A stretch of DNA of 64,000 bases from Escherichia phage naswa, in the sequence record MN850595.1. The stretch is one strand, 5' to 3'. The translations under genes were made by a program, and so were the position numbers. Shown piece by piece: positions 9,089 to 64,000 of this stretch. How positions within the stretch are numbered: position 1 is the first letter of the stretch; every line of letters begins with the position of its first letter. The notes beneath the pieces were generated by a model. That model did not search any database, had not been told where the DNA came from, and saw only the letters and a program-made list of their open reading frames with translations.

Positions 9089-11156
9089 ATTTATGGCATC
9101 TGCATACAACCGTTTCGGTGAGCCAAACCCGAAAGCAACTAAGTATAAAAGTGGGGGGAGTGTGAAACGAGACTATCGTGATGAAAAAGAAGTTGAAACT
9201 GTAGAGACTGTTTTAGAAAATACTAAAATTGTCCCTGTCCCACAACAAAATATCGGTCTGATGGCTGCACAATATTTTGGTGTGCGATCAGCATTGTCCC
9301 AAGAAGACGGTGTGACAGTCACTGCAACATATTTCCCATATTACGACCGCTACGGAAATCTGTCTGGTTTCAAAAAGCGTGACTGGACTATTCCTAAAGA
9401 GCAAAGGGGCCATTTCTCCGTTGTTGGCATCGTAAAGGCCAACTCCCAGATGTTTGGTCAAAAGCTGTGTGCATCTTCCAACAACCGTAAGCAGATTAAC
9501 GTTTGTGAGGGAGAAGGTGATGTTATTGCAGCATGGCAGGCTGCATATCAGATACAAGTAAAAGGGATTCTCACCAACGCTAAAGCCCCGGCAAAGGTGA
9601 AGCAGTGGGCTAAAGAGGTCCAGGACGGGATCGACGCAGTTATCAACGGTGGTGATCTGGCAGGAAAACCCTGCCTGCCTTTTGTTGGAATTAACTGTGG
9701 ATGTGCAAACGCAGTAGATACTTTTGCAAACAATGAGAAGTTTATCCGTAGCTATGGAACAGTTGTGCTGGCAATGGATAACGATGCAGCTAACGAGGTA
9801 GAGAAGCAAAAACACGTCATTAAAGGTGTTGAGGCCACGCACAATATCGCAGCATTTTTGATGTCTGATAACGTTTACCACGTAGAATACCCCGGTGAAG
9901 TAAATGACCCTGACGGTGTAAAAGATATCCGAGACATGCTGAAGGCTAAAAAGCTGGAAGATATTGTCAACATGTTCCGGCACCCTGTTAAATATGTGCC
10001 TGATGCTGTGTCGGATTTAGAAGACTTCTCTATCGAGTCTTTGCGGAAAAAGACTTCCAACGGGGTAGATATCAGTGCAGAGTTCCCAAAACTGCAAAAA
10101 ATGCTAAAAGGCTTGCACAAAGGGACACTTGTAATGCTTACAGGTCCATCAGGCGGCGGTAAAACAACCGTGGCTAAAAAACTGGAACACTGTATTGCAA
10201 GATACCTAATGGACCCGACATGCCCGAAGGCCGATGACTATGAAGAGGATGATCGTCTATGCATGATCCATCTTGAGGAGGATCCAGAGGAAGCAATTAA
10301 CTCCTTGTATGCAAACCAGTTAGGGTTTGATGTTAAAGAGTTTGTTGAAGATCCTAGCCAGTTTTTAACTGATCAAGAACACGCAGAGATTCACCAATCA
10401 TGGGCAAAAGCTGGAAAAATCAAAGTGTTCAAACATTTCGGGTCTATTCCGGTGGACGAGTTGATTACCAAGCTTAAGCAAATGGTTTGCCTGTACCATT
10501 GTCGTTATATTGTGCTGGATCACCTGTCCATGGTAATTTCAGGGCTTAATGTTAAGGATGAGCGAAAAGAACTGGACATGGCTATGACCCAACTGGCTGC
10601 GTTTTGTAAGCAGTTTAACGTGTTTATCTTGGTGATCGCTCACCTCAAACGTACAGAGATTGTGCCCCCTAAGGACAAGGATGGTAACCCATTACCTTTC
10701 TGGTATCCTGTGCGAAAAGAGAATTTGCGAGGATCGGCTGGGCTTGAACAGTTGAGTTGGGTAGTCATAGGTGTCGAGGCCGAAGAAATGGTGGATCGTT
10801 CTCGTGGACGTGTCCGTCTGGTAGGTCTTAAAAACCGTCCAGCAAAAACTTTAGGTATTGCTGACACTTTAGTTATGGATCCGCATACAGGTAAGTTCCA
10901 TGATGCCAGTAATTGGTACTGGGACAAAGAAATGCAGATGTTCACAGACGGAGAAGGTGGGGAGGTTGTTTGGAGACCTCAGGCTATGTTTGAGGATCAG
11001 GAGCATGCAGTTGTAGAAACACCTATGGGCAAGGTTGTGGCTGATAAGGTTGTAACACCCACTGTCAAGCCTATTGACACGCAGGAAGACCTCCAATACG
11101 ATGATCCATCCTCTGATCCGGTCCCTGGTTTTGAGGATGATGAAACACCTTTTTAA
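9078..11156 (+). CDS. Primase-helicase (TOPRIM primase domain fused to DnaB-like helicase)
   Basis: TOPRIM-like CEGEGD and MDNDAANE; Walker A LTGPSGGGKTT; DnaB-family helicase motifs; acidic C-terminal tail ending DDETPF. Confidence 0.8.
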   Translation: MGSKFMASAYNRFGEPNPKATKYKSGGSVKRDYRDEKEVETVETVLENTKIVPVPQQNIGLMAAQYFGVRSALSQEDGVTVTATYFPYYDRYGNLSGFKKRDWTIPKEQRGHFSVVGIVKANSQMFGQKLCASSNNRKQINVCEGEGDVIAAWQAAYQIQVKGILTNAKAPAKVKQWAKEVQDGIDAVINGGDLAGKPCLPFVGINCGCANAVDTFANNEKFIRSYGTVVLAMDNDAANEVEKQKHVIKGVEATHNIAAFLMSDNVYHVEYPGEVNDPDGVKDIRDMLKAKKLEDIVNMFRHPVKYVPDAVSDLEDFSIESLRKKTSNGVDISAEFPKLQKMLKGLHKGTLVMLTGPSGGGKTTVAKKLEHCIARYLMDPTCPKADDYEEDDRLCMIHLEEDPEEAINSLYANQLGFDVKEFVEDPSQFLTDQEHAEIHQSWAKAGKIKVFKHFGSIPVDELITKLKQMVCLYHCRYIVLDHLSMVISGLNVKDERKELDMAMTQLAAFCKQFNVFILVIAHLKRTEIVPPKDKDGNPLPFWYPVRKENLRGSAGLEQLSWVVIGVEAEEMVDRSRGRVRLVGLKNRPAKTLGIADTLVMDPHTGKFHDASNWYWDKEMQMFTDGEGGEVVWRPQAMFEDQEHAVVETPMGKVVADKVVTPTVKPIDTQEDLQYDDPSSDPVPGFEDDETPF

Positions 11157-18471: not shown

Positions 18472-18888
18472 ATGACATTAGAAGATATCATTGTTAAGCC
18501 TGAGAACTATGACCAATACAACCTGTCAACTCAATCTGTAGACCTTGGATGCGCCACGGTCAGTGCGTGGCTGGTTAACGGAAAAGAGCTGGATAAATGC
18601 TTAGAAGCTCACATGTCTATTAACAAGTTTCTGGATGAAAATACTCACTGGCTTGAGGGTGCAGGCGTATATGCTTCATGGTTGGATAGTATGGGATTCG
18701 ACTACCAATCTGAAGAGGGGTGGTGGAGCTATTTAGCTATCTGTCCAGAGACGCTACAATGCTTCATGAAATATTCTGAAGATTTGGAGTACCGGGCGGT
18801 GGTTGATAGTGCTATTGCCCGTTATAGCCGTAAACCTTTTTCCCACGACATTAAAACTGTGGAAGAATTTGTTGAAGTTTTCTGTTGA
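18472..18888 (+). CDS. Hypothetical protein
   Basis: 138 aa ORF with AAGGAGA RBS. Confidence 0.5.
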   Translation: MTLEDIIVKPENYDQYNLSTQSVDLGCATVSAWLVNGKELDKCLEAHMSINKFLDENTHWLEGAGVYASWLDSMGFDYQSEEGWWSYLAICPETLQCFMKYSEDLEYRAVVDSAIARYSRKPFSHDIKTVEEFVEVFC

Positions 18889-18984
18889 CACAGATTGAAA
18901 GGTGTGCAATTATAACTTCATAGAACGGGAGGACGTGATGAACGAAGAAAACTGGGATGTATAACTAACAGGAGGCCACTGCCC

Positions 18985-32097: not shown

Positions 32098-32225
32098 TCC
32101 TTATTAACTAGAAAACAGGGCTTGCAATGGTCCTGTTTTTTGTTATACTTATTACACGGCAGGCACCTGGCGACGGGGGGAGACAATCACCGGGCCTGCC
32201 TGTCATATAAGAACTATAAAAACCG

Positions 32226-32254
32226 TTGACATCTGCCAGGTGGTGGGGTAACAT
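32226..32254 (+). promoter_or_regulatory. Sigma70-like promoter (TTGACA-17-TAACAT)
   Basis: Consensus -35 and spacing. Confidence 0.45.
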
Positions 32255-36933: not shown

Positions 36934-36962
36934 ATACTATCACGGGAGCGGTAATGTGTCAA
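36934..36962 (-). promoter_or_regulatory. Sigma70-like promoter on minus strand (TTGACA-17-TAGTAT)
   Basis: Reverse-complement consensus hexamers upstream of small ORF at 36913. Confidence 0.5.
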
Positions 36963-37119
36963 CAGCAACGCCGCGAGGGTTTGGTTAAAATCCGAGCGTA
37001 TGGTGATTTGGGTCAAAACGGACGTGCGTTCTCGCTACGCTCGAAAGAGAGACTTGTTTGTAGAAAGCTCTTAAACGCTCTGTAACGAGATTATCTGTCC
37101 AAGGTATGCAATCGTGCAC

Positions 37120-40263: not shown

Positions 40264-40659
40264 TTACTGAAACAGTGCGGATAAATTACCTTCTGGTGGG
40301 AACTTATCTGCCAAAAACGGTGTTAGCACAGTAGCCTTCTGAAGATCTGGGGTCCACTCGTTGTTCAGAACATCCCAGTAGTACGCAATGTTGCTGTGTG
40401 GGTGCCGCATTACGAACTTTTTCCCTTCGTAGTCATCTGAAACCTCTACAGAAGAAATAACAACAGAATCTTCAAGGGTTTCTTCATAGAAAGATCCGCC
40501 TTCAAATTTCCAACGAGATGCAAGAGCCCCTGCCTTGAACGCTGCAGATAACGGACTGTCGGCAAGAACATACATTTCTTGCACTCTGTCGCTGCGATCT
40601 TTGCTTCTTACGTTGTATACAGTATCTGAGCTATACTCAACACGGTATAGGCTTACCAT
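40264..40659 (-). CDS. Paralog family B protein
   Basis: Shares FVMRHPHSNIAYYWDVLNNEWTP with 42471-42869 (FVIVHPDSRVKHYWNARTKTWTP). Confidence 0.55.
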   Translation of the reverse strand: MVSLYRVEYSSDTVYNVRSKDRSDRVQEMYVLADSPLSAAFKAGALASRWKFEGGSFYEETLEDSVVISSVEVSDDYEGKKFVMRHPHSNIAYYWDVLNNEWTPDLQKATVLTPFLADKFPPEGNLSALFQ

Positions 40660-41259: not shown

Positions 41260-41350
41260 ATAATATCACCTCTGGTAAGAGATTGGGATTCCTTTCCCAC
41301 AAATAATTACAAATCTTACTTAGCGAGGAAGTATGCTAATCCAAGCAGGA

Positions 41351-41620
41351 TTATTCCTCTACAATCTCATACACATCAGGAGTTACAATCAACTCTTCTC
41401 CATTACCAGGTGCAACAAACACCACCAAACCCTCAGGTGTGTGCTTTTTAGCCATCTCGATAACATCTTCTCGCAGAGCTGGCTCCATCAGATCAAAACC
41501 TTCACCCAGGGCATCACGAACCACCTTCATATAGTCCACTGGTTGTGCTTCAACAATCATGCCTTCAACCAGACCACAATTTTTGTCTGCCAGCTCAGTT
41601 TTGAATAATTTAATTTTCAT
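41351..41620 (-). CDS. Paralog family A small protein
   Basis: MKIKLF N-terminus; C-terminal DVYEIVEE. Confidence 0.5.
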   Translation of the reverse strand: MKIKLFKTELADKNCGLVEGMIVEAQPVDYMKVVRDALGEGFDLMEPALREDVIEMAKKHTPEGLVVFVAPGNGEELIVTPDVYEIVEE

Positions 41621-41646
41621 TTAGAGGTCTCCTCAATTATTTGATA

Positions 41647-41748
41647 TTAATAGCCGTAACCTAACACATTAACTACAACTGCGATTGCAAACATAATTTC
41701 AAAGCATGCAATCTCTACATTTGGGACTAATTTCTTAATCACACCCAT
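41647..41748 (-). CDS. Small membrane peptide (33 aa), not in ORF track
   Basis: ATG after GAGGTG RBS just downstream of hpf; hydrophobic FEIMFAIAVVVNVLGYGY. Confidence 0.35.
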   Translation of the reverse strand: MGVIKKLVPNVEIACFEIMFAIAVVVNVLGYGY

Positions 41749-41757
41749 TGTAGCACC

Positions 41758-42078
41758 TCATTCTCCAAAGTCAATCTTTACTTTGCCTTTCCCCTTACCT
41801 TTCTTTCCACCGCATTTAGCCAGCTGACGTGCTGCAACATCTACCATACGGTCAGTTGCCTCGTAAGCATCACTGCCTTTAGCCTTGGCAATAACTTCTT
41901 TTCCAGAATTGTCAAAAATGAACGCCATAACTTCCTGGTGATCATTTTCAACTTTTACACTCACACGTGCATAGTTAACAGAGGGATGTAAACGCTCCAG
42001 CTTGGACATTTTGCGGGAAATAAAAGATACCATACCTTCTGTGATTTCTACATTGTTGCCAGTGATTTCAATTTGCAT
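41758..42078 (-). CDS. hpf: Ribosome hibernation-promoting factor homolog (HPF/RaiA family)
   Basis: MQIEITGNNVEITEGM...LERLHPSVNYARVSVKVE parallels bacterial HPF N-terminus MQLNITGHNVEIT; AAGGA RBS. Confidence 0.8.
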   Translation of the reverse strand: MQIEITGNNVEITEGMVSFISRKMSKLERLHPSVNYARVSVKVENDHQEVMAFIFDNSGKEVIAKAKGSDAYEATDRMVDVAARQLAKCGGKKGKGKGKVKIDFGE

Positions 42079-42162
42079 AACGTGTTCCTTTTAAGGAAGA
42101 GGGAATAACTATCTCTCTTTGAAAACAATGATACTAAATCTGAAGCGTTGTGTCAACAGTTT

Positions 42163-42453
42163 TTACAGCTTGTTGTCGATAGTTTTTAAAATATCCACAG
42201 CAAGATCTGCCATTTTTCGAACATACTCTGCAAACTCAACAGGATCCTTGATCAAAGAATTCACAGGGTCGTACCCTAGAGCGTTTAAAATGGCTGCAGC
42301 ATCTACAACCTTCTCATCATTTGCGAAGATCTCTCCGTCAAACTTGTAGGTCCATTTTGAGTCAACCTTAGCAGAGCAGGGTTTGTCCATGCTTGTTACA
42401 CCATCGTCTTTAAACTCTCCTGCGTTATCAATATTTAGAATTAAATCCATCAT
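42163..42453 (-). CDS. Hypothetical protein
   Basis: 96 aa ORF. Confidence 0.5.
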   Translation of the reverse strand: MMDLILNIDNAGEFKDDGVTSMDKPCSAKVDSKWTYKFDGEIFANDEKVVDAAAILNALGYDPVNSLIKDPVEFAEYVRKMADLAVDILKTIDNKL

Positions 42454-42470
42454 GGTGACACCTCACTGTT

Positions 42471-42869
42471 TCAGTTTAGCTTTTCTTCAACAACCCCATA
42501 ACTTGGGGCAGAGTCAAGAGCTTTCTGGTTTAAAAGTGGCGTAGCAGAATCTGCAAACGGTGTCCAAGTTTTTGTTCTGGCATTCCAGTAATGCTTCACT
42601 CTGGAATCTGGATGCACTATAACAAAAACTTTTTCACTTGTCAACACATTAATTTCTTCTACACCCTTGCTGATAATTTCTCCGTCATAGCCCCCAGTCT
42701 GGTATCCTTCGTACCAGGTTCTTGCATAGGCATAGCCAGCCTGCCAGCATGCAGCCTCCTCCGAGGTGGAGACTACGTAGAAGTCTTTCTCAAATTCCGG
42801 AATACGCCCTTGCTTTACGCTCCAAGCTCCGCGAATTTTCATTGTTACTTTGAAAAGCTTGTTCTTCAT
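42471..42869 (-). CDS. Paralog family B protein
   Basis: Shares conserved C-terminal block with 40264-40659. Confidence 0.55.
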   Translation of the reverse strand: MKNKLFKVTMKIRGAWSVKQGRIPEFEKDFYVVSTSEEAACWQAGYAYARTWYEGYQTGGYDGEIISKGVEEINVLTSEKVFVIVHPDSRVKHYWNARTKTWTPFADSATPLLNQKALDSAPSYGVVEEKLN

Positions 42870-42870
42870 A

Positions 42871-43125
42871 CTACCGCTCTACAATCTCTACATCTGTTCC
42901 TACACCGAAGGCATAGTAATGTTCTTCCCCAAAGTAATACTTGGGGACACCCGCTTTGATCAGATCTAACCCGCGAATAAATACCACACCGTGTGATACA
43001 GTGGAATGCTTCTGACGCACAGGATCGTTGTCAGGCAACCATTCAAAGTACACCGCAGGTACAACCTTTCCCTTCAGGAAGGATTGTCCCAAGTAGACGT
43101 TAGAATCAAGAATTTTAACCTTCAT
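42871..43125 (-). CDS. Paralog family A small protein
   Basis: MKVKIL N-terminus, VVFIRGLDLIKAG core, DVEIVER C-terminus. Confidence 0.55.
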   Translation of the reverse strand: MKVKILDSNVYLGQSFLKGKVVPAVYFEWLPDNDPVRQKHSTVSHGVVFIRGLDLIKAGVPKYYFGEEHYYAFGVGTDVEIVER

Positions 43126-43342
43126 TCTCGTCCTCCACTATCTCTACATCCTCACCAAGGGCAAAGTTGTAGGTCCACTGGCTGTCAAAGCAGTCCTGAG
43201 ATGCACCAGCGGCAATAAGATCTGCACCTTTTATTTTTAAAAGGTCAGGATAATCTTCGTTAGGGATAGCGGTAAACACTTTCCCCACTAAGGGCTCCTG
43301 ACCAATATAGAAGCTTGAATCTAAAACTTTAACTTTCATCAA
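43115..43342 (-). CDS. Paralog family A small protein
   Basis: MKVKVL N-terminus, LLKIKGADLIAAG core, DVEIVED C-terminus. Confidence 0.55.
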   Translation of the reverse strand: MMKVKVLDSSFYIGQEPLVGKVFTAIPNEDYPDLLKIKGADLIAAGASQDCFDSQWTYNFALGEDVEIVEDENEG

Positions 43343-46243: not shown

Positions 46244-46777
46244 CTACAAATGGCAACTGAGGGTGTCAAGAAAATTATCCCGTTCTTTCTCAGAGTTTTC
46301 ATGGGTGTAGCTGAAAAACATATCGAGAATAACCTTATTGATATATTCCAGCTCCTCTGTGTTCAGATGCTTAGCAGGATCTACAATGACATCCCAAATA
46401 TCATACAGACCACACTCATGATACCCATAACGCCACTCAATTGTCAAGCTGAGCGGCAAATCTTTACCGTCACAAACAACCTTCCATCTACATATGTTGG
46501 TATCTGGTCGTATCTGTGCACGGTACACCTGTACAAAATCCAATTTGAATTTGAGGTACTCGTCATACAATTTAAGCACAAAGCTCTCGATTTGTGGAGA
46601 CACTTTTGCAGCAAACTGTGCGTATTTGTACTTGCACTGGATGATCTTTCTGCGTTTTGCAGTTAAATTTTTTGCCGCCAGTTGTTCTTCAGTGTATCTC
46701 CACCTACGATCAACAAACGCAACAGGGTCTTTGTCCCCATAGAGGTCTTCCCAGTTAATCAGAAGCATACCTGTCAC
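46244..46777 (-). CDS. Hypothetical protein
   Basis: 177 aa ORF. Confidence 0.55.
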   Translation of the reverse strand: MTGMLLINWEDLYGDKDPVAFVDRRWRYTEEQLAAKNLTAKRRKIIQCKYKYAQFAAKVSPQIESFVLKLYDEYLKFKLDFVQVYRAQIRPDTNICRWKVVCDGKDLPLSLTIEWRYGYHECGLYDIWDVIVDPAKHLNTEELEYINKVILDMFFSYTHENSEKERDNFLDTLSCHL

Positions 46778-47007
46778 TCCTCCACAACTTCAAGGCCTTT
46801 ACCGCCTCGCTCTGGCAGATTACTTAAAGATAGGTAATACATATAATCAGGAGAGATCCTGCCAGACTCTGCACCTGCAGCTAGTAAATCCTTCCCTTTA
46901 ACCAGGACAACATTCTCGTTTGCAGATAGCCGTTTTGCTTCCACAATTTTACCAACACAGTCAACCAAGGAAGGGTACCCTAAATCTGTAAGAAATTTAA
47001 CTTTCAT
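46774..47007 (-). CDS. Paralog family A small protein
   Basis: MKVKFL N-terminus, VVLVKGKDLLAAG core, GLEVVEE C-terminus. Confidence 0.55.
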   Translation of the reverse strand: MKVKFLTDLGYPSLVDCVGKIVEAKRLSANENVVLVKGKDLLAAGAESGRISPDYMYYLSLSNLPERGGKGLEVVEE

Positions 47008-50036: not shown

Positions 50037-50065
50037 ATAATATCTAAAGCTTACCTATTTGTCAA
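50037..50065 (-). promoter_or_regulatory. Sigma70-like promoter on minus strand (TTGACA-17-TATTAT)
   Basis: Reverse-complement consensus hexamers. Confidence 0.55.
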
Positions 50066-50109
50066 CAACTGTTTTAGATATTTAAGGGTGGAATAACCAC
50101 CCTTCTGTA

Positions 50110-63253: not shown

Positions 63254-64000
63254 ACCTAGTCTCCAAAATGTATTGTAGTTCTTTCTTACCTATACTCTTC
63301 ATTCCGGCAGTCTTACCTGCTTCTTCTTGAAAAGAAGAATAGCATTCAGCAAACACTCTGTCAACACCGTCAACTAAAGATTTTATGAAATATGTTGATT
63401 CTTCAGATTTTGGGTCATCCTCCCCCAATACTTTTCCAGCATTATACCCAACACGTCTTACACAGAAGTCGTAGTCATCTGGAGTGCTAAAAGAAAATAA
63501 CTTATTCTCCCCAATCTCTACAGGATCCCTGTTGCACGCCTTTTTCTCCCAAATTTGGAAAACACACGGCACGTCATAAGGTTTGCCATTAAGTAGAAAC
63601 GAGTTCTTAGGGCACCTTTCACTGTAGACAAGGTGCATAGACATGTCCAGTTTGTTTGCAAAAAATATTTTTTCAAATGTCCGTGGCAAGATGAAGGCTA
63701 TAGCCCCTCCAAGCTCTAGCAATGATGCACAATGGTTAAAGAATTTGCAAGCTAAAGATGAATTCTTGCCAAATGGTGGGTTACCTATGAAGACATCTGC
63801 CTTGGGATGCACCTCCAAGAAGTTTGCCTGAATGCACGGTGTTGGTCCTTCAAATTCAGGATCTGGTACCAGATCGTAAGACAATATCTCTGAAAATAGT
63901 TTTGAAAAAGAACCCCTTCCAGCAGAAGGCTCAACGTATGCACAATTTCCATACTTATCTTTTACTTTACCAACAAGATATTCTGCATACTCAGGGTTTG
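63216..64000 (-). CDS. DNA N6-adenine methyltransferase (gamma-class), 5' end beyond window
   Basis: Open frame continues without stop to window edge; motif I EPSAGRGSF lies upstream of track start and precedes motif IV NPPF. Confidence 0.6.
   Translation of the reverse strand, partial: NPEYAEYLVGKVKDKYGNCAYVEPSAGRGSFSKLFSEILSYDLVPDPEFEGPTPCIQANFLEVHPKADVFIGNPPFGKNSSLACKFFNHCASLLELGGAIAFILPRTFEKIFFANKLDMSMHLVYSERCPKNSFLLNGKPYDVPCVFQIWEKKACNRDPVEIGENKLFSFSTPDDYDFCVRRVGYNAGKVLGEDDPKSEESTYFIKSLVDGVDRVFAECYSSFQEEAGKTAGMKSIGKKELQYILETRYDQKHRLDQRTY

Follow-up and report, generated by a model that had tools for sequence, protein, structure and literature searches.

A genus-specific HPF/YfiA-family core gene of Vequintavirus phages that may compete with host ribosome hibernation factors

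The window analyzed here, a stretch of 64,000 nucleotides of Escherichia phage naswa (MN850595.1), comes from a Vequintavirus, i.e., an rV5-like coliphage; its 2-kb segment 41000-43000 is 100% identical to the Vequintavirus Escherichia phage magaca (MN850612.1). On the minus strand, a 106-codon open reading frame (ORF) runs from ATG to TGA at 41758..42078 and encodes a protein starting with MQIEITGNNVEIT. Its translation matches exactly the protein sequence quoted in an earlier interpretation of the same DNA made from its letters alone (hereafter the sequence-only reading). The product is 97% identical to the rV5 protein YP_002003641, and the gene is surrounded by small phage genes without Pfam matches. 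The elements of the locus that are used below are the following:

41758..42078, minus strand: hpf-like coding sequence, 106 aa plus stop, ortholog of rV5 gp139 / ORF144
41812..42078, minus strand: folded HPF/YfiA domain, residues 1-89, predicted with AlphaFold2 and Foldseek
41761..41811, minus strand: Lys/Gly-rich C-terminal tail, residues 90-106, GGKKGKGKGKVKIDFGE, predicted to be disordered by AlphaFold2
42128..42156, minus strand: sigma70-type promoter, TTGACA-17 nt-TATCAT, with 11 of 12 consensus matches, 50 nt upstream of the ATG (promoter scan)
42086..42090, minus strand: Shine-Dalgarno-like AAGGA, 7 nt before the ATG (read from the sequence)
41647..41748, minus strand: 33-aa hydrophobic ORF, MGVIKKLVPNVEIACFEIMFAIAVVVNVLGYGY, 9 nt after the hpf stop codon
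41747..41774, minus strand: putative internal promoter, TTGACT-16 nt-TGcTACAAT, with 10 of 12 matches and an extended -10 (promoter scan)

The phage HPF gene is already known, as it has been annotated since the rV5 record and was published and tested once, in 2019. Records label its orthologs variously as "sigma 54 modulation factor", "ribosome-associated translation inhibitor RaiA", "ribosome hibernation factor", or "hpf". An 89-aa neighbor that some records also call "sigma 54 modulation factor" was considered as a second HPF and rejected, as it has no family support. Many of the small acidic neighbors of hpf appear to be paralogous, which was confirmed for three pairs only.

Membership of the protein in the HPF/YfiA family is close to certain, because its HMM scores pass curated cut-offs and because its predicted fold and its nearest relatives point the same way. 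Pfam PF02482 (Ribosomal_S30AE) matches residues 3-89 on positions 1-83 of the 88 in the model, with 56.7 bits (E=4.2e-15) for a gathering score of 23.7 bits, and TIGR00741 (HPF/YfiA family) gives 56.8 bits for a cut-off of 40.9. An HMM search against this family was the check proposed by the sequence-only reading, and the protein passes both curated thresholds. The best sequence matches in the PDB are the E. coli HPF chains 2rql, 4v8h, and 6h4n (E ~1e-15, residues 1-90), RaiA being far weaker (E ~0.02). We built an AlphaFold2 model on 82 homologs, which has a mean pLDDT of 82.7, reaching ~90 across residues 1-89, and a predicted beta-alpha-beta-beta-beta-alpha topology (b1 2-8, a1 14-30, b2 34-44, b3 47-56, b4 61-68, a2 71-89). 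The top Foldseek matches in the PDB, 4hei, 2rql, and 6h4n (HPF of V. cholerae and E. coli), have TM scores of 0.86-0.94 and rmsd of 1.1-1.6 Å, and all 35 best matches are HPF/RaiA/pY proteins, either in ribosome complexes or as free hibernation factors. The claim that the phage encodes an HPF/RaiA homolog is thus upheld by PF02482, TIGR00741, the predicted fold, and the nearest relatives, and the likeness to bacterial HPF that had been noticed at the N-terminus is real and spans the whole domain. The C-terminal dimerization domain of long HPFs (~60 residues after a linker) was not found in the 106-aa protein.

Judging from the scores, equivalence to E. coli HPF or to RaiA specifically is not secure. 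The short HPF equivalog (NCBIfam NF007780) scores 65.2 bits, under its cut-off of 125, and the RaiA equivalog (NCBIfam NF007654) scores 22.8 bits, under its cut-off of 158. The RefSeq name of rV5 gp139, "ribosome-associated translation inhibitor RaiA", is therefore a family-level label only.

The sigma70-type promoter upstream of hpf is annotated as P144 in rV5 and is conserved in all orthologs. It is one of a repeated family of promoters, since the CTGTTGACA-N17-TAnnnT motif occurs 8 times in the window, for 0.4 expected. According to the authors of the rV5 genome, the long block of small genes that includes hpf is one transcription unit with many sigma70 promoters. We dropped a candidate regulatory hairpin in the 5' leader of hpf, whose fold is no better than that of shuffled sequences (z=-0.57) and whose stem is not conserved among orthologs. 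An Rfam scan of positions 41300-42500 revealed nothing meaningful (top match RT-17, E=0.72).

The sequence-only reading had also placed a 33-aa membrane peptide immediately downstream of hpf. There is indeed a conserved hydrophobic ORF at this place, but it is only putatively coding, given its unusually low synonymous variation. The ORF has a GAGGTG Shine-Dalgarno sequence overlapping the hpf stop and a 19-residue hydrophobic stretch (residues 11-29, mean Kyte-Doolittle 2.27). It matches phrog_15151 (E=3.7e-26) and is found in 117 phage records, all of them Vequintavirus and always adjoining hpf. Even L004, the most divergent ortholog, has preserved the reading frame, with a different N-terminus. 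The ORF is absent from the sister lineage L005, where its place is taken by a spacer of 83 nt that contains a promoter-like element of its own. Only 5 of its 33 codons have variable third positions, versus 164 of 356 in the flanking genes (Fisher p=4e-4), where this variability ranges between 41% and 50% among four genes, and ~70 nt of the region are nearly invariant. The putative internal promoter overlaps both the end of hpf (the codons for I-D-F) and the ATG that starts the 33-aa ORF; nine orthologs share an invariant -35, and two of these have a perfect TATAAT as their -10. Compared with shuffled sequences, the region shows somewhat better folding (z=-2.1 in sense and -2.6 in antisense), its variation being too low for covariation. 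The scarcity of variable third positions, the conserved promoter-like site, and the folding scores indicate that, beyond the peptide, the nucleotides themselves are constrained; the region might serve the downstream gene as a leader or promoter.

To place hpf among its relatives, we used a word-indexed protein search, which gave 5 matches, all from close phage relatives, and an exhaustive HMMER search of 1.84 billion cluster representatives, which reached the cellular relatives. In the latter, the single other cluster above 50% identity is P0004 (66%), an uncultured and syntenic sister phage lineage whose DNA aligns to that of Vequintavirus over one third of 8 kb with 73-80% identity. The next best matches are enterobacterial short HPFs, with 38-44% identity. 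Hence, the phage clade appears as a long isolated branch stemming from gammaproteobacterial hpf. A search of IMG/VR returned 2 related loci only.

The distribution of the gene among phages is narrow. Around 118 phage records carry an ortholog, with at least 93% amino-acid identity, and the hpf region is present in 118 records, to be compared with 120 Vequintavirus-level records having the unrelated marker nrdD. We searched ~157 records from related genera, whose NrdD has 60-80% identity, and did not find hpf in them. With E. coli HPF as a query, 129 of the 50,697 phage records have any member of the family, Vequintavirus accounting for ~117 of them. We compared nine rV5-like orthologs, for which dN/dS ranges between 0.023 and 0.16 in every pair with at least 10 substitutions (dS up to 0.71), and the variable sites comprise 36 third positions for 14 first or second positions. 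These patterns indicate a core gene that is specific to the genus and held under strong purifying selection, neither a recent nor a decaying acquisition. An ancestor of Vequintavirus seems to have captured a gammaproteobacterial hpf, which would have been retained since as a core gene. We also considered that the ORF might be a pseudogene or have arisen by chance, which was rejected given the dN/dS values and the conservation across the genus.

We then compared the residues of the protein with those of 79 cellular homologs, using a contact list from cryo-EM of HPF- and YfiA-bound ribosomes (bioRxiv 10.1101/2025.10.07.680626). The near-invariant residues of the fold (G7, A64, D70, Y72, D76, and Q85) are kept. 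Six of the nine basic positions, defined as K/R in at least 76% of the cellular homologs, are also kept: K23, K26, R29, R84, K88, and K92 correspond to K23, K26, Q29, R83, K87, and K91 of E. coli, where R83 contacts m4C1402 (bioRxiv 10.1101/2025.10.07.680626). The remaining three, R17, K80, and K89 in E. coli, became V17, V81, and G90 in the phage protein. They are K/R in 86%, 90%, and 94% of the cellular homologs, respectively, and the same study counts K80 and K89 as strictly conserved residues by which alpha-2 contacts rRNA. P0004 is also non-basic at these positions (V, T, and S), which suggests that the three losses are ancestral and stable in the phage clade. The phage protein further carries a one-residue insertion in the beta3-beta4 turn and the substitutions Y30L, T53F, and H55F; in cellular HPFs, Y30, T53, and H55 contact A790, m2G966, and the C-terminus of uS9 (same study). 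These counts suggest an altered binding to the ribosome but are not a proof of it. The contact residues of RaiA vary considerably across species (PMC13122176), and residue bookkeeping is thus a poor predictor of affinity in either direction.

Past the folded domain, the tail GGKKGKGKGKVKIDFGE has 17 residues, of which 6 are Lys and 6 are Gly, just as the lysine/glycine-rich C-terminus had been described from the letters. In the AlphaFold2 model, pLDDT is below 50 for residues 91-106. The core domain alone has a pI of 6.1, and the whole protein, with its tail, a pI of 9.0. The tail is kept in the rV5-like phages with small in-frame changes in length, and the sister lineage P0004 has a different basic tail. 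The tail of RaiA is reported to overlap the RMF site and to counter the dimerization driven by RMF and HPF.

As the gene in the window is orthologous to rV5 gp139, the published facts on the rV5 "viral HPF" apply to it. Mizuno et al. (2019, Nat Commun 10:752; PMC6375957) listed the rV5 protein among virus-encoded ribosomal proteins, reported that it clusters with gammaproteobacterial HPFs, and proposed that it may compete with the host HPF, preventing dimerization. When expressed in E. coli, the protein was detected by mass spectrometry (MS) in the crude extract and not in purified 70S or 100S, and the abundance of 100S was unchanged (PMC6375957). In this protocol, cells were harvested at OD600 = 1, and ribosomes were pelleted through 500 mM NH4Cl for 20 h, followed by a gradient of 18 h. 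We re-read the data of this study and found the following spectra:

Crude extract, viral-HPF cells (Data 5): RaiA 6, HPF 4, RMF 9, viral HPF 2-5
Washed ribosomes, bS21 cells (Data 2): RaiA 1, HPF none, RMF none, viral HPF not applicable
Washed ribosomes, bL12 cells (Data 3): RaiA 6, HPF none, RMF none, viral HPF not applicable
Washed ribosomes, viral-HPF cells (Data 4): RaiA, HPF, RMF, and viral HPF all none

The depth of the MS analyses was comparable, since S14 has 6 spectra in Data 3 and in Data 4. The published negative on ribosome binding is uninformative, lacking a working positive control, because the host HPF and RMF were also lost from the washed ribosomes even if they were in the extract. 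A lack of ribosome association had been named in the sequence-only reading as an outcome speaking against its proposal. The rV5 ortholog was nominally off the washed ribosomes, but so were the host HPF and RMF, and its absence implies only that its binding is less salt-stable than that of RaiA, not that it fails to bind. Among the washed preparations, RaiA is missing only from the ribosomes of viral-HPF cells, yet it is present in their extract. This is a weak hint that fits competition for a shared site: it comes from one shotgun MS sample, in which the probability of observing no RaiA spectrum lies between 0.002 and 0.47, depending on the reference sample. We found no discussion of RaiA or RMF in the main text of the study (PMC6375957), none of phage HPF in the BASEL paper, and, by exact-phrase and related searches of the available literature, no functional work on phage HPF after 2019.

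We tentatively propose a mechanism of weak occupancy of the ribosome and competition with host factors, to which we give, as a whole, a probability of about 0.45. That the phage protein binds ribosomes at all is, taken separately, somewhat more likely than not. The host RNA polymerase would transcribe hpf early in infection, a timing that we infer from the promoter only. The protein would then bind vacant host 30S or 70S in the decoding channel (A/P-site region), like HPF and RaiA, by means of the kept contacts K23, K26, R29, R84, K88, and K92. Its affinity would be weakened and its binding salt-labile, because three otherwise conserved basic contacts, R17, K80, and K89 of E. coli, are missing. 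The flexible poly-lysine tail might in part make up for this loss and, by analogy with the tail of RaiA, would run toward the mRNA-exit/RMF side. The phage protein would compete with the host RaiA and HPF, and indirectly with RMF, for the decoding site, and idle ribosomes would be kept as protected and quickly reusable 70S monomers, rather than as 100S dimers or tight RaiA complexes. Such a function has a rationale because host dormancy responses to infection raise RMF, as was reported for infected cells under anti-phage dormancy in the DRT2 study. Some points stand against competition. The lost basic contacts, together with T53F, H55F, and Y30L, could mean that binding is lost and not just weakened. 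An occupant of the decoding site would also inhibit the translation of the phage unless its off-rate is high, which we assume. Finally, the sole experiment on ribosome association, with the rV5 ortholog, was negative, though uninformative.

Several other roles must be weighed against weak competition. The protein might be an anti-hibernation factor, i.e., a weak and fast-exchanging mimic of HPF and RaiA that evicts or excludes RaiA, prevents the formation of 100S by RMF and HPF, and restores translatable ribosomes. We regard this as conceivable but rather unlikely. If true, it would counter a dormancy based on translation arrest in starving, cold-shocked, or defense-induced cells, the lost basic contacts and the RaiA-like tail would be adaptations and not decay, and the loss of RaiA in Data 4 relative to Data 2, 3, and 5 would be the first sign of it in an experiment. 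A role as ribosome shield overlaps with the competition model and places the benefit on protection instead of competition with host factors: by occupying the decoding site of idle ribosomes, the protein would guard 16S rRNA against host RNases (RNase R, RNase II, YbeY) or abortive-infection toxins once host rRNA synthesis stops, saving the pool for late phage synthesis. The host HPF, RaiA, and RMF directly block the entry of ribonucleases into the ribosome, according to a published account (PMC7913689), and the phage gene has kept the fold and the main alpha-2 contacts, has an early host-type promoter, and, in a phage that is strictly lytic, evolves under strong purifying selection. However, the host already supplies HPF and RaiA, and a weak, salt-labile binder would protect ribosomes worse than they do, and we find a shield unlikely. 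We are similarly doubtful of neofunctionalization, where the HPF fold would be kept, ribosome binding gone, and the fold and poly-lysine tail would bind another RNA or protein, e.g., a transcript of the phage or of the host, or a host factor for which HPF is the usual ligand. The rV5 protein was in the extract and was not recovered with ribosomes, three of the nine conserved basic positions were lost in both phage lineages, T53, H55, and Y30 became hydrophobic, both equivalog cut-offs were missed (65 vs 125 and 23 vs 158 bits), and the clade is long and isolated. The acidity of the core domain alone (pI 6.1, for 9.0 in the whole protein, the basicity coming from the tail) goes in the same direction. 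Yet the negative on ribosomes is not diagnostic, since that preparation had lost the host HPF and RMF as well, and R84 is kept (R83 in E. coli, contacting m4C1402) along with K88, K92, K23, K26, and R29. The gene context, with neighbors lacking Pfam matches, suggests no other partner.

The two remaining explanations fare worse. A classical hibernation promoter would act with the host RMF to turn 70S into inactive 100S, shutting off host translation. This would be in line with the nearest cellular relatives being enterobacterial short HPFs, which act with RMF, and with the window variant retaining the GNNVEIT loop of E. coli HPF. But no effect of the expressed rV5 ortholog on 100S could be discerned (in cells at OD600 = 1), the 11-residue extension resembles RaiA, whose tail is reported to antagonize the dimerization driven by RMF and HPF (PMC13122176), and silencing ribosomes generally would silence the phage as well. 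We consider this role quite improbable. The suggestion of the sequence-only reading that a phage copy could dimerize host ribosomes is disfavored for related reasons, namely the unchanged 100S, the RaiA-like extension of the tail, and the lack of the dimerization domain of long HPFs. Its other two suggestions, silencing or protecting the ribosomes, which like dimerization were put forward as possibilities only, are kept as candidates. The single argument for a modulation of sigma-54-dependent host transcription is the legacy label "sigma 54 modulation factor", a historical name still present in many records. The family is now seen as ribosome-binding, the structural matches are all ribosome complexes or free hibernation factors, and neither rpoN nor any sigma-54-related gene is found nearby, leaving this role with a negligible probability.

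The interest of this gene is that phage genes acting directly on the host ribosome are rare, with HPF-family genes in ~0.25% of the phage records, mostly Vequintavirus. How lytic phages handle ribosomes that hibernate, when the host is not growing, matters for phage therapy of dormant bacteria, and phage hpf is a tractable entry to this question: it is a small gene, its phages can be grown on E. coli K-12, and mutants of the host in hpf, raiA, and rmf are available. What is said on the role of phage HPF during infection consists of proposals. The present analysis adds that hpf is a constrained core gene across the genus, that it has a near-consensus sigma70 promoter, that it combines a stable pattern of contact losses with the gain of a poly-lysine tail, and that the published negative on ribosome binding came without a working positive control. 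The constraint, the contact losses, and the missing control together justify repeating the biochemistry at low salt.

The closest known system is the ortholog in rV5 (gp139 / ORF144; YP_002003641, ABI79209), where the position, the promoter, and the downstream 33-aa ORF are the same as in the window. The two alleles differ slightly, since that of the window has 106 aa, with GNNVEIT (an extra Asn in the b1-a1 loop), R22, and V34, whereas that of rV5 has 105 aa, with GNVEIT, H22, and A34. The closest cellular relative is E. coli HPF (YhbH; 2rql, 4v8h, 6h4n), which has 41-44% identity and the same single-domain fold. Both proteins have the alpha-2 contacts R83, K87, and K91 and the alpha-1 contacts K23 and K26 (E. 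coli numbering). On the other hand, E. coli HPF ends 11 residues short of the phage protein, the extra part being the Lys/Gly tail, and it is encoded in the rpoN operon (rpoN-hpf-ptsN), whereas the phage gene lies outside such an operon and has its own sigma70 promoter.

E. coli RaiA (YfiA, protein Y; 4v8i, 1n3g) shares the fold and the family of binding sites, with only 21-23% identity to the phage protein. Both RaiA (...RRAATSVKDANFVEEVEEE) and the phage protein (...KGKGKVKIDFGE) extend past the length of HPF, with tails that start basic and end acidic/aromatic. They differ in that RaiA stayed on ribosomes after the wash with 500 mM NH4Cl and the phage (rV5) protein did not. Finally, Cronobacter phage GAP32 and Xanthomonas jumbo phage XaC1 are independent captures of the HPF family by large lytic phages, with ~23% identity to the rV5-type protein. 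The HPF of XaC1 keeps all three basic contacts that were lost in Vequintavirus, having Lys at the positions of R17, K80, and K89, and it carries a long acidic tail.

The orthologs of hpf, the HPF/YfiA-family gene of this phage, carry in-frame length polymorphisms at two places, codon 8 (window 42055-42057) and the tail (41761-41811). Asn8, in the b1-a1 loop, is carried by the window gene and by 21 records at >=99% identity, and is missing from hpf of the type phage rV5 and of most other orthologs, which are 105 aa long. In the tail, the number of Gly-Lys repeats differs among orthologs: the YN3 protein has 103 aa and the most divergent rV5-like ortholog, L004, contains GKGKGKGK.

Published mass spectrometry data include the rV5 protein expressed in E. 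coli (Mizuno et al. 2019, PMC6375957, Supplementary Data 2-5). In washed ribosomes, host RaiA was represented by 1 spectrum when cells expressed the viral bS21 and by 6 when they expressed the viral bL12. [quoted passage not shown] Host HPF and RMF were missing from all three washed preparations (bS21, bL12, viral HPF). The authors left this RaiA, HPF and RMF pattern without comment.

Several records, e.g., OR062528 and MT884009, name the true hpf "ATP-dependent protease La Type I", and the label "sigma 54 modulation factor" is attached in magaca, nom, and other records to a different gene:

41351-41620, minus strand, 89-aa gene

This label goes back to an annotation of APCEc02. We rejected it, as the gene lacks any Pfam match and the name looks like a misannotation propagated from the adjacent gene. 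Additionally, 18-24 "Campylobacter phage" records (MG0656xx; C2, C12, A147, and others), with Campylobacter jejuni as the stated host, share 95-97% identity with E. coli rV5-like phages over hpf, the hydrophobic 33-aa ORF downstream of it, and nrdD. Most likely, these assemblies are mislabelled or contaminant.

The small-gene block surrounding hpf includes three paralogous pairs, none of whose genes has a Pfam match:

40264-40659 and 42471-42869, both minus strand, 28% identity (BLASTP E = 8e-10)
42871-43125 and 43115-43339, both minus strand, 42% identity (BLASTP E = 1e-15)
43115-43339 and 46774-47007, both minus strand, 31% identity (BLASTP E = 8e-7)

Further away lies an uninterrupted nrdD, 100% identical in nucleotide sequence to that of phage inoa:

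53533-55671, minus strand, anaerobic ribonucleotide reductase, 712 aa

In several relatives the match to nrdD is split in 2-3 pieces across ~3 kb and homing endonucleases are annotated, suggesting a polymorphism of intron- or intein-type insertions.

Allowing one mismatch, we found 8 copies of the extended promoter motif CTGTTGACA-N17-TAnnnT in the window, against 0.4 expected from shuffles:

36934-36965, 42128-42159, 42616-42647, 50037-50068, and 63336-63367, minus strand, motif matches
11071-11102, 18882-18913, and 32223-32254, plus strand, motif matches

These copies are consistent with a genome-wide family of strong promoters of the host type.

Two overlapping features lie at and beyond the 3' end of hpf:

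41647-41748, minus strand, 33-aa ORF, near-absence of synonymous variation in 9 orthologs
41747-41774, minus strand, conserved promoter-like site TTGACT-16-TGcTACAAT

Among the 9 orthologs, 5 of the 33 third positions vary in the ORF, versus 164 of 356 in the flanking genes (p=4e-4), and ~70 nt of the region are nearly invariant. [quoted passage not shown] The scarcity of synonymous changes, the inverted repeat, and the promoter-like site together suggest that the region may be a leader, promoter, or RNA element, instead of or besides encoding a peptide. In the uncultured sister lineage L005, the 33-aa ORF is absent from the spacer between hpf and the next gene (L005 4313-4395). This spacer has AAACTGTTTACA-17-TACACT followed by the hairpin CTGTAG-TACA-CTACAG, and its AAACTGTTTACA-17-TACACT is similar to AAACTGTTGACA of the sigma70-type promoter upstream of hpf.
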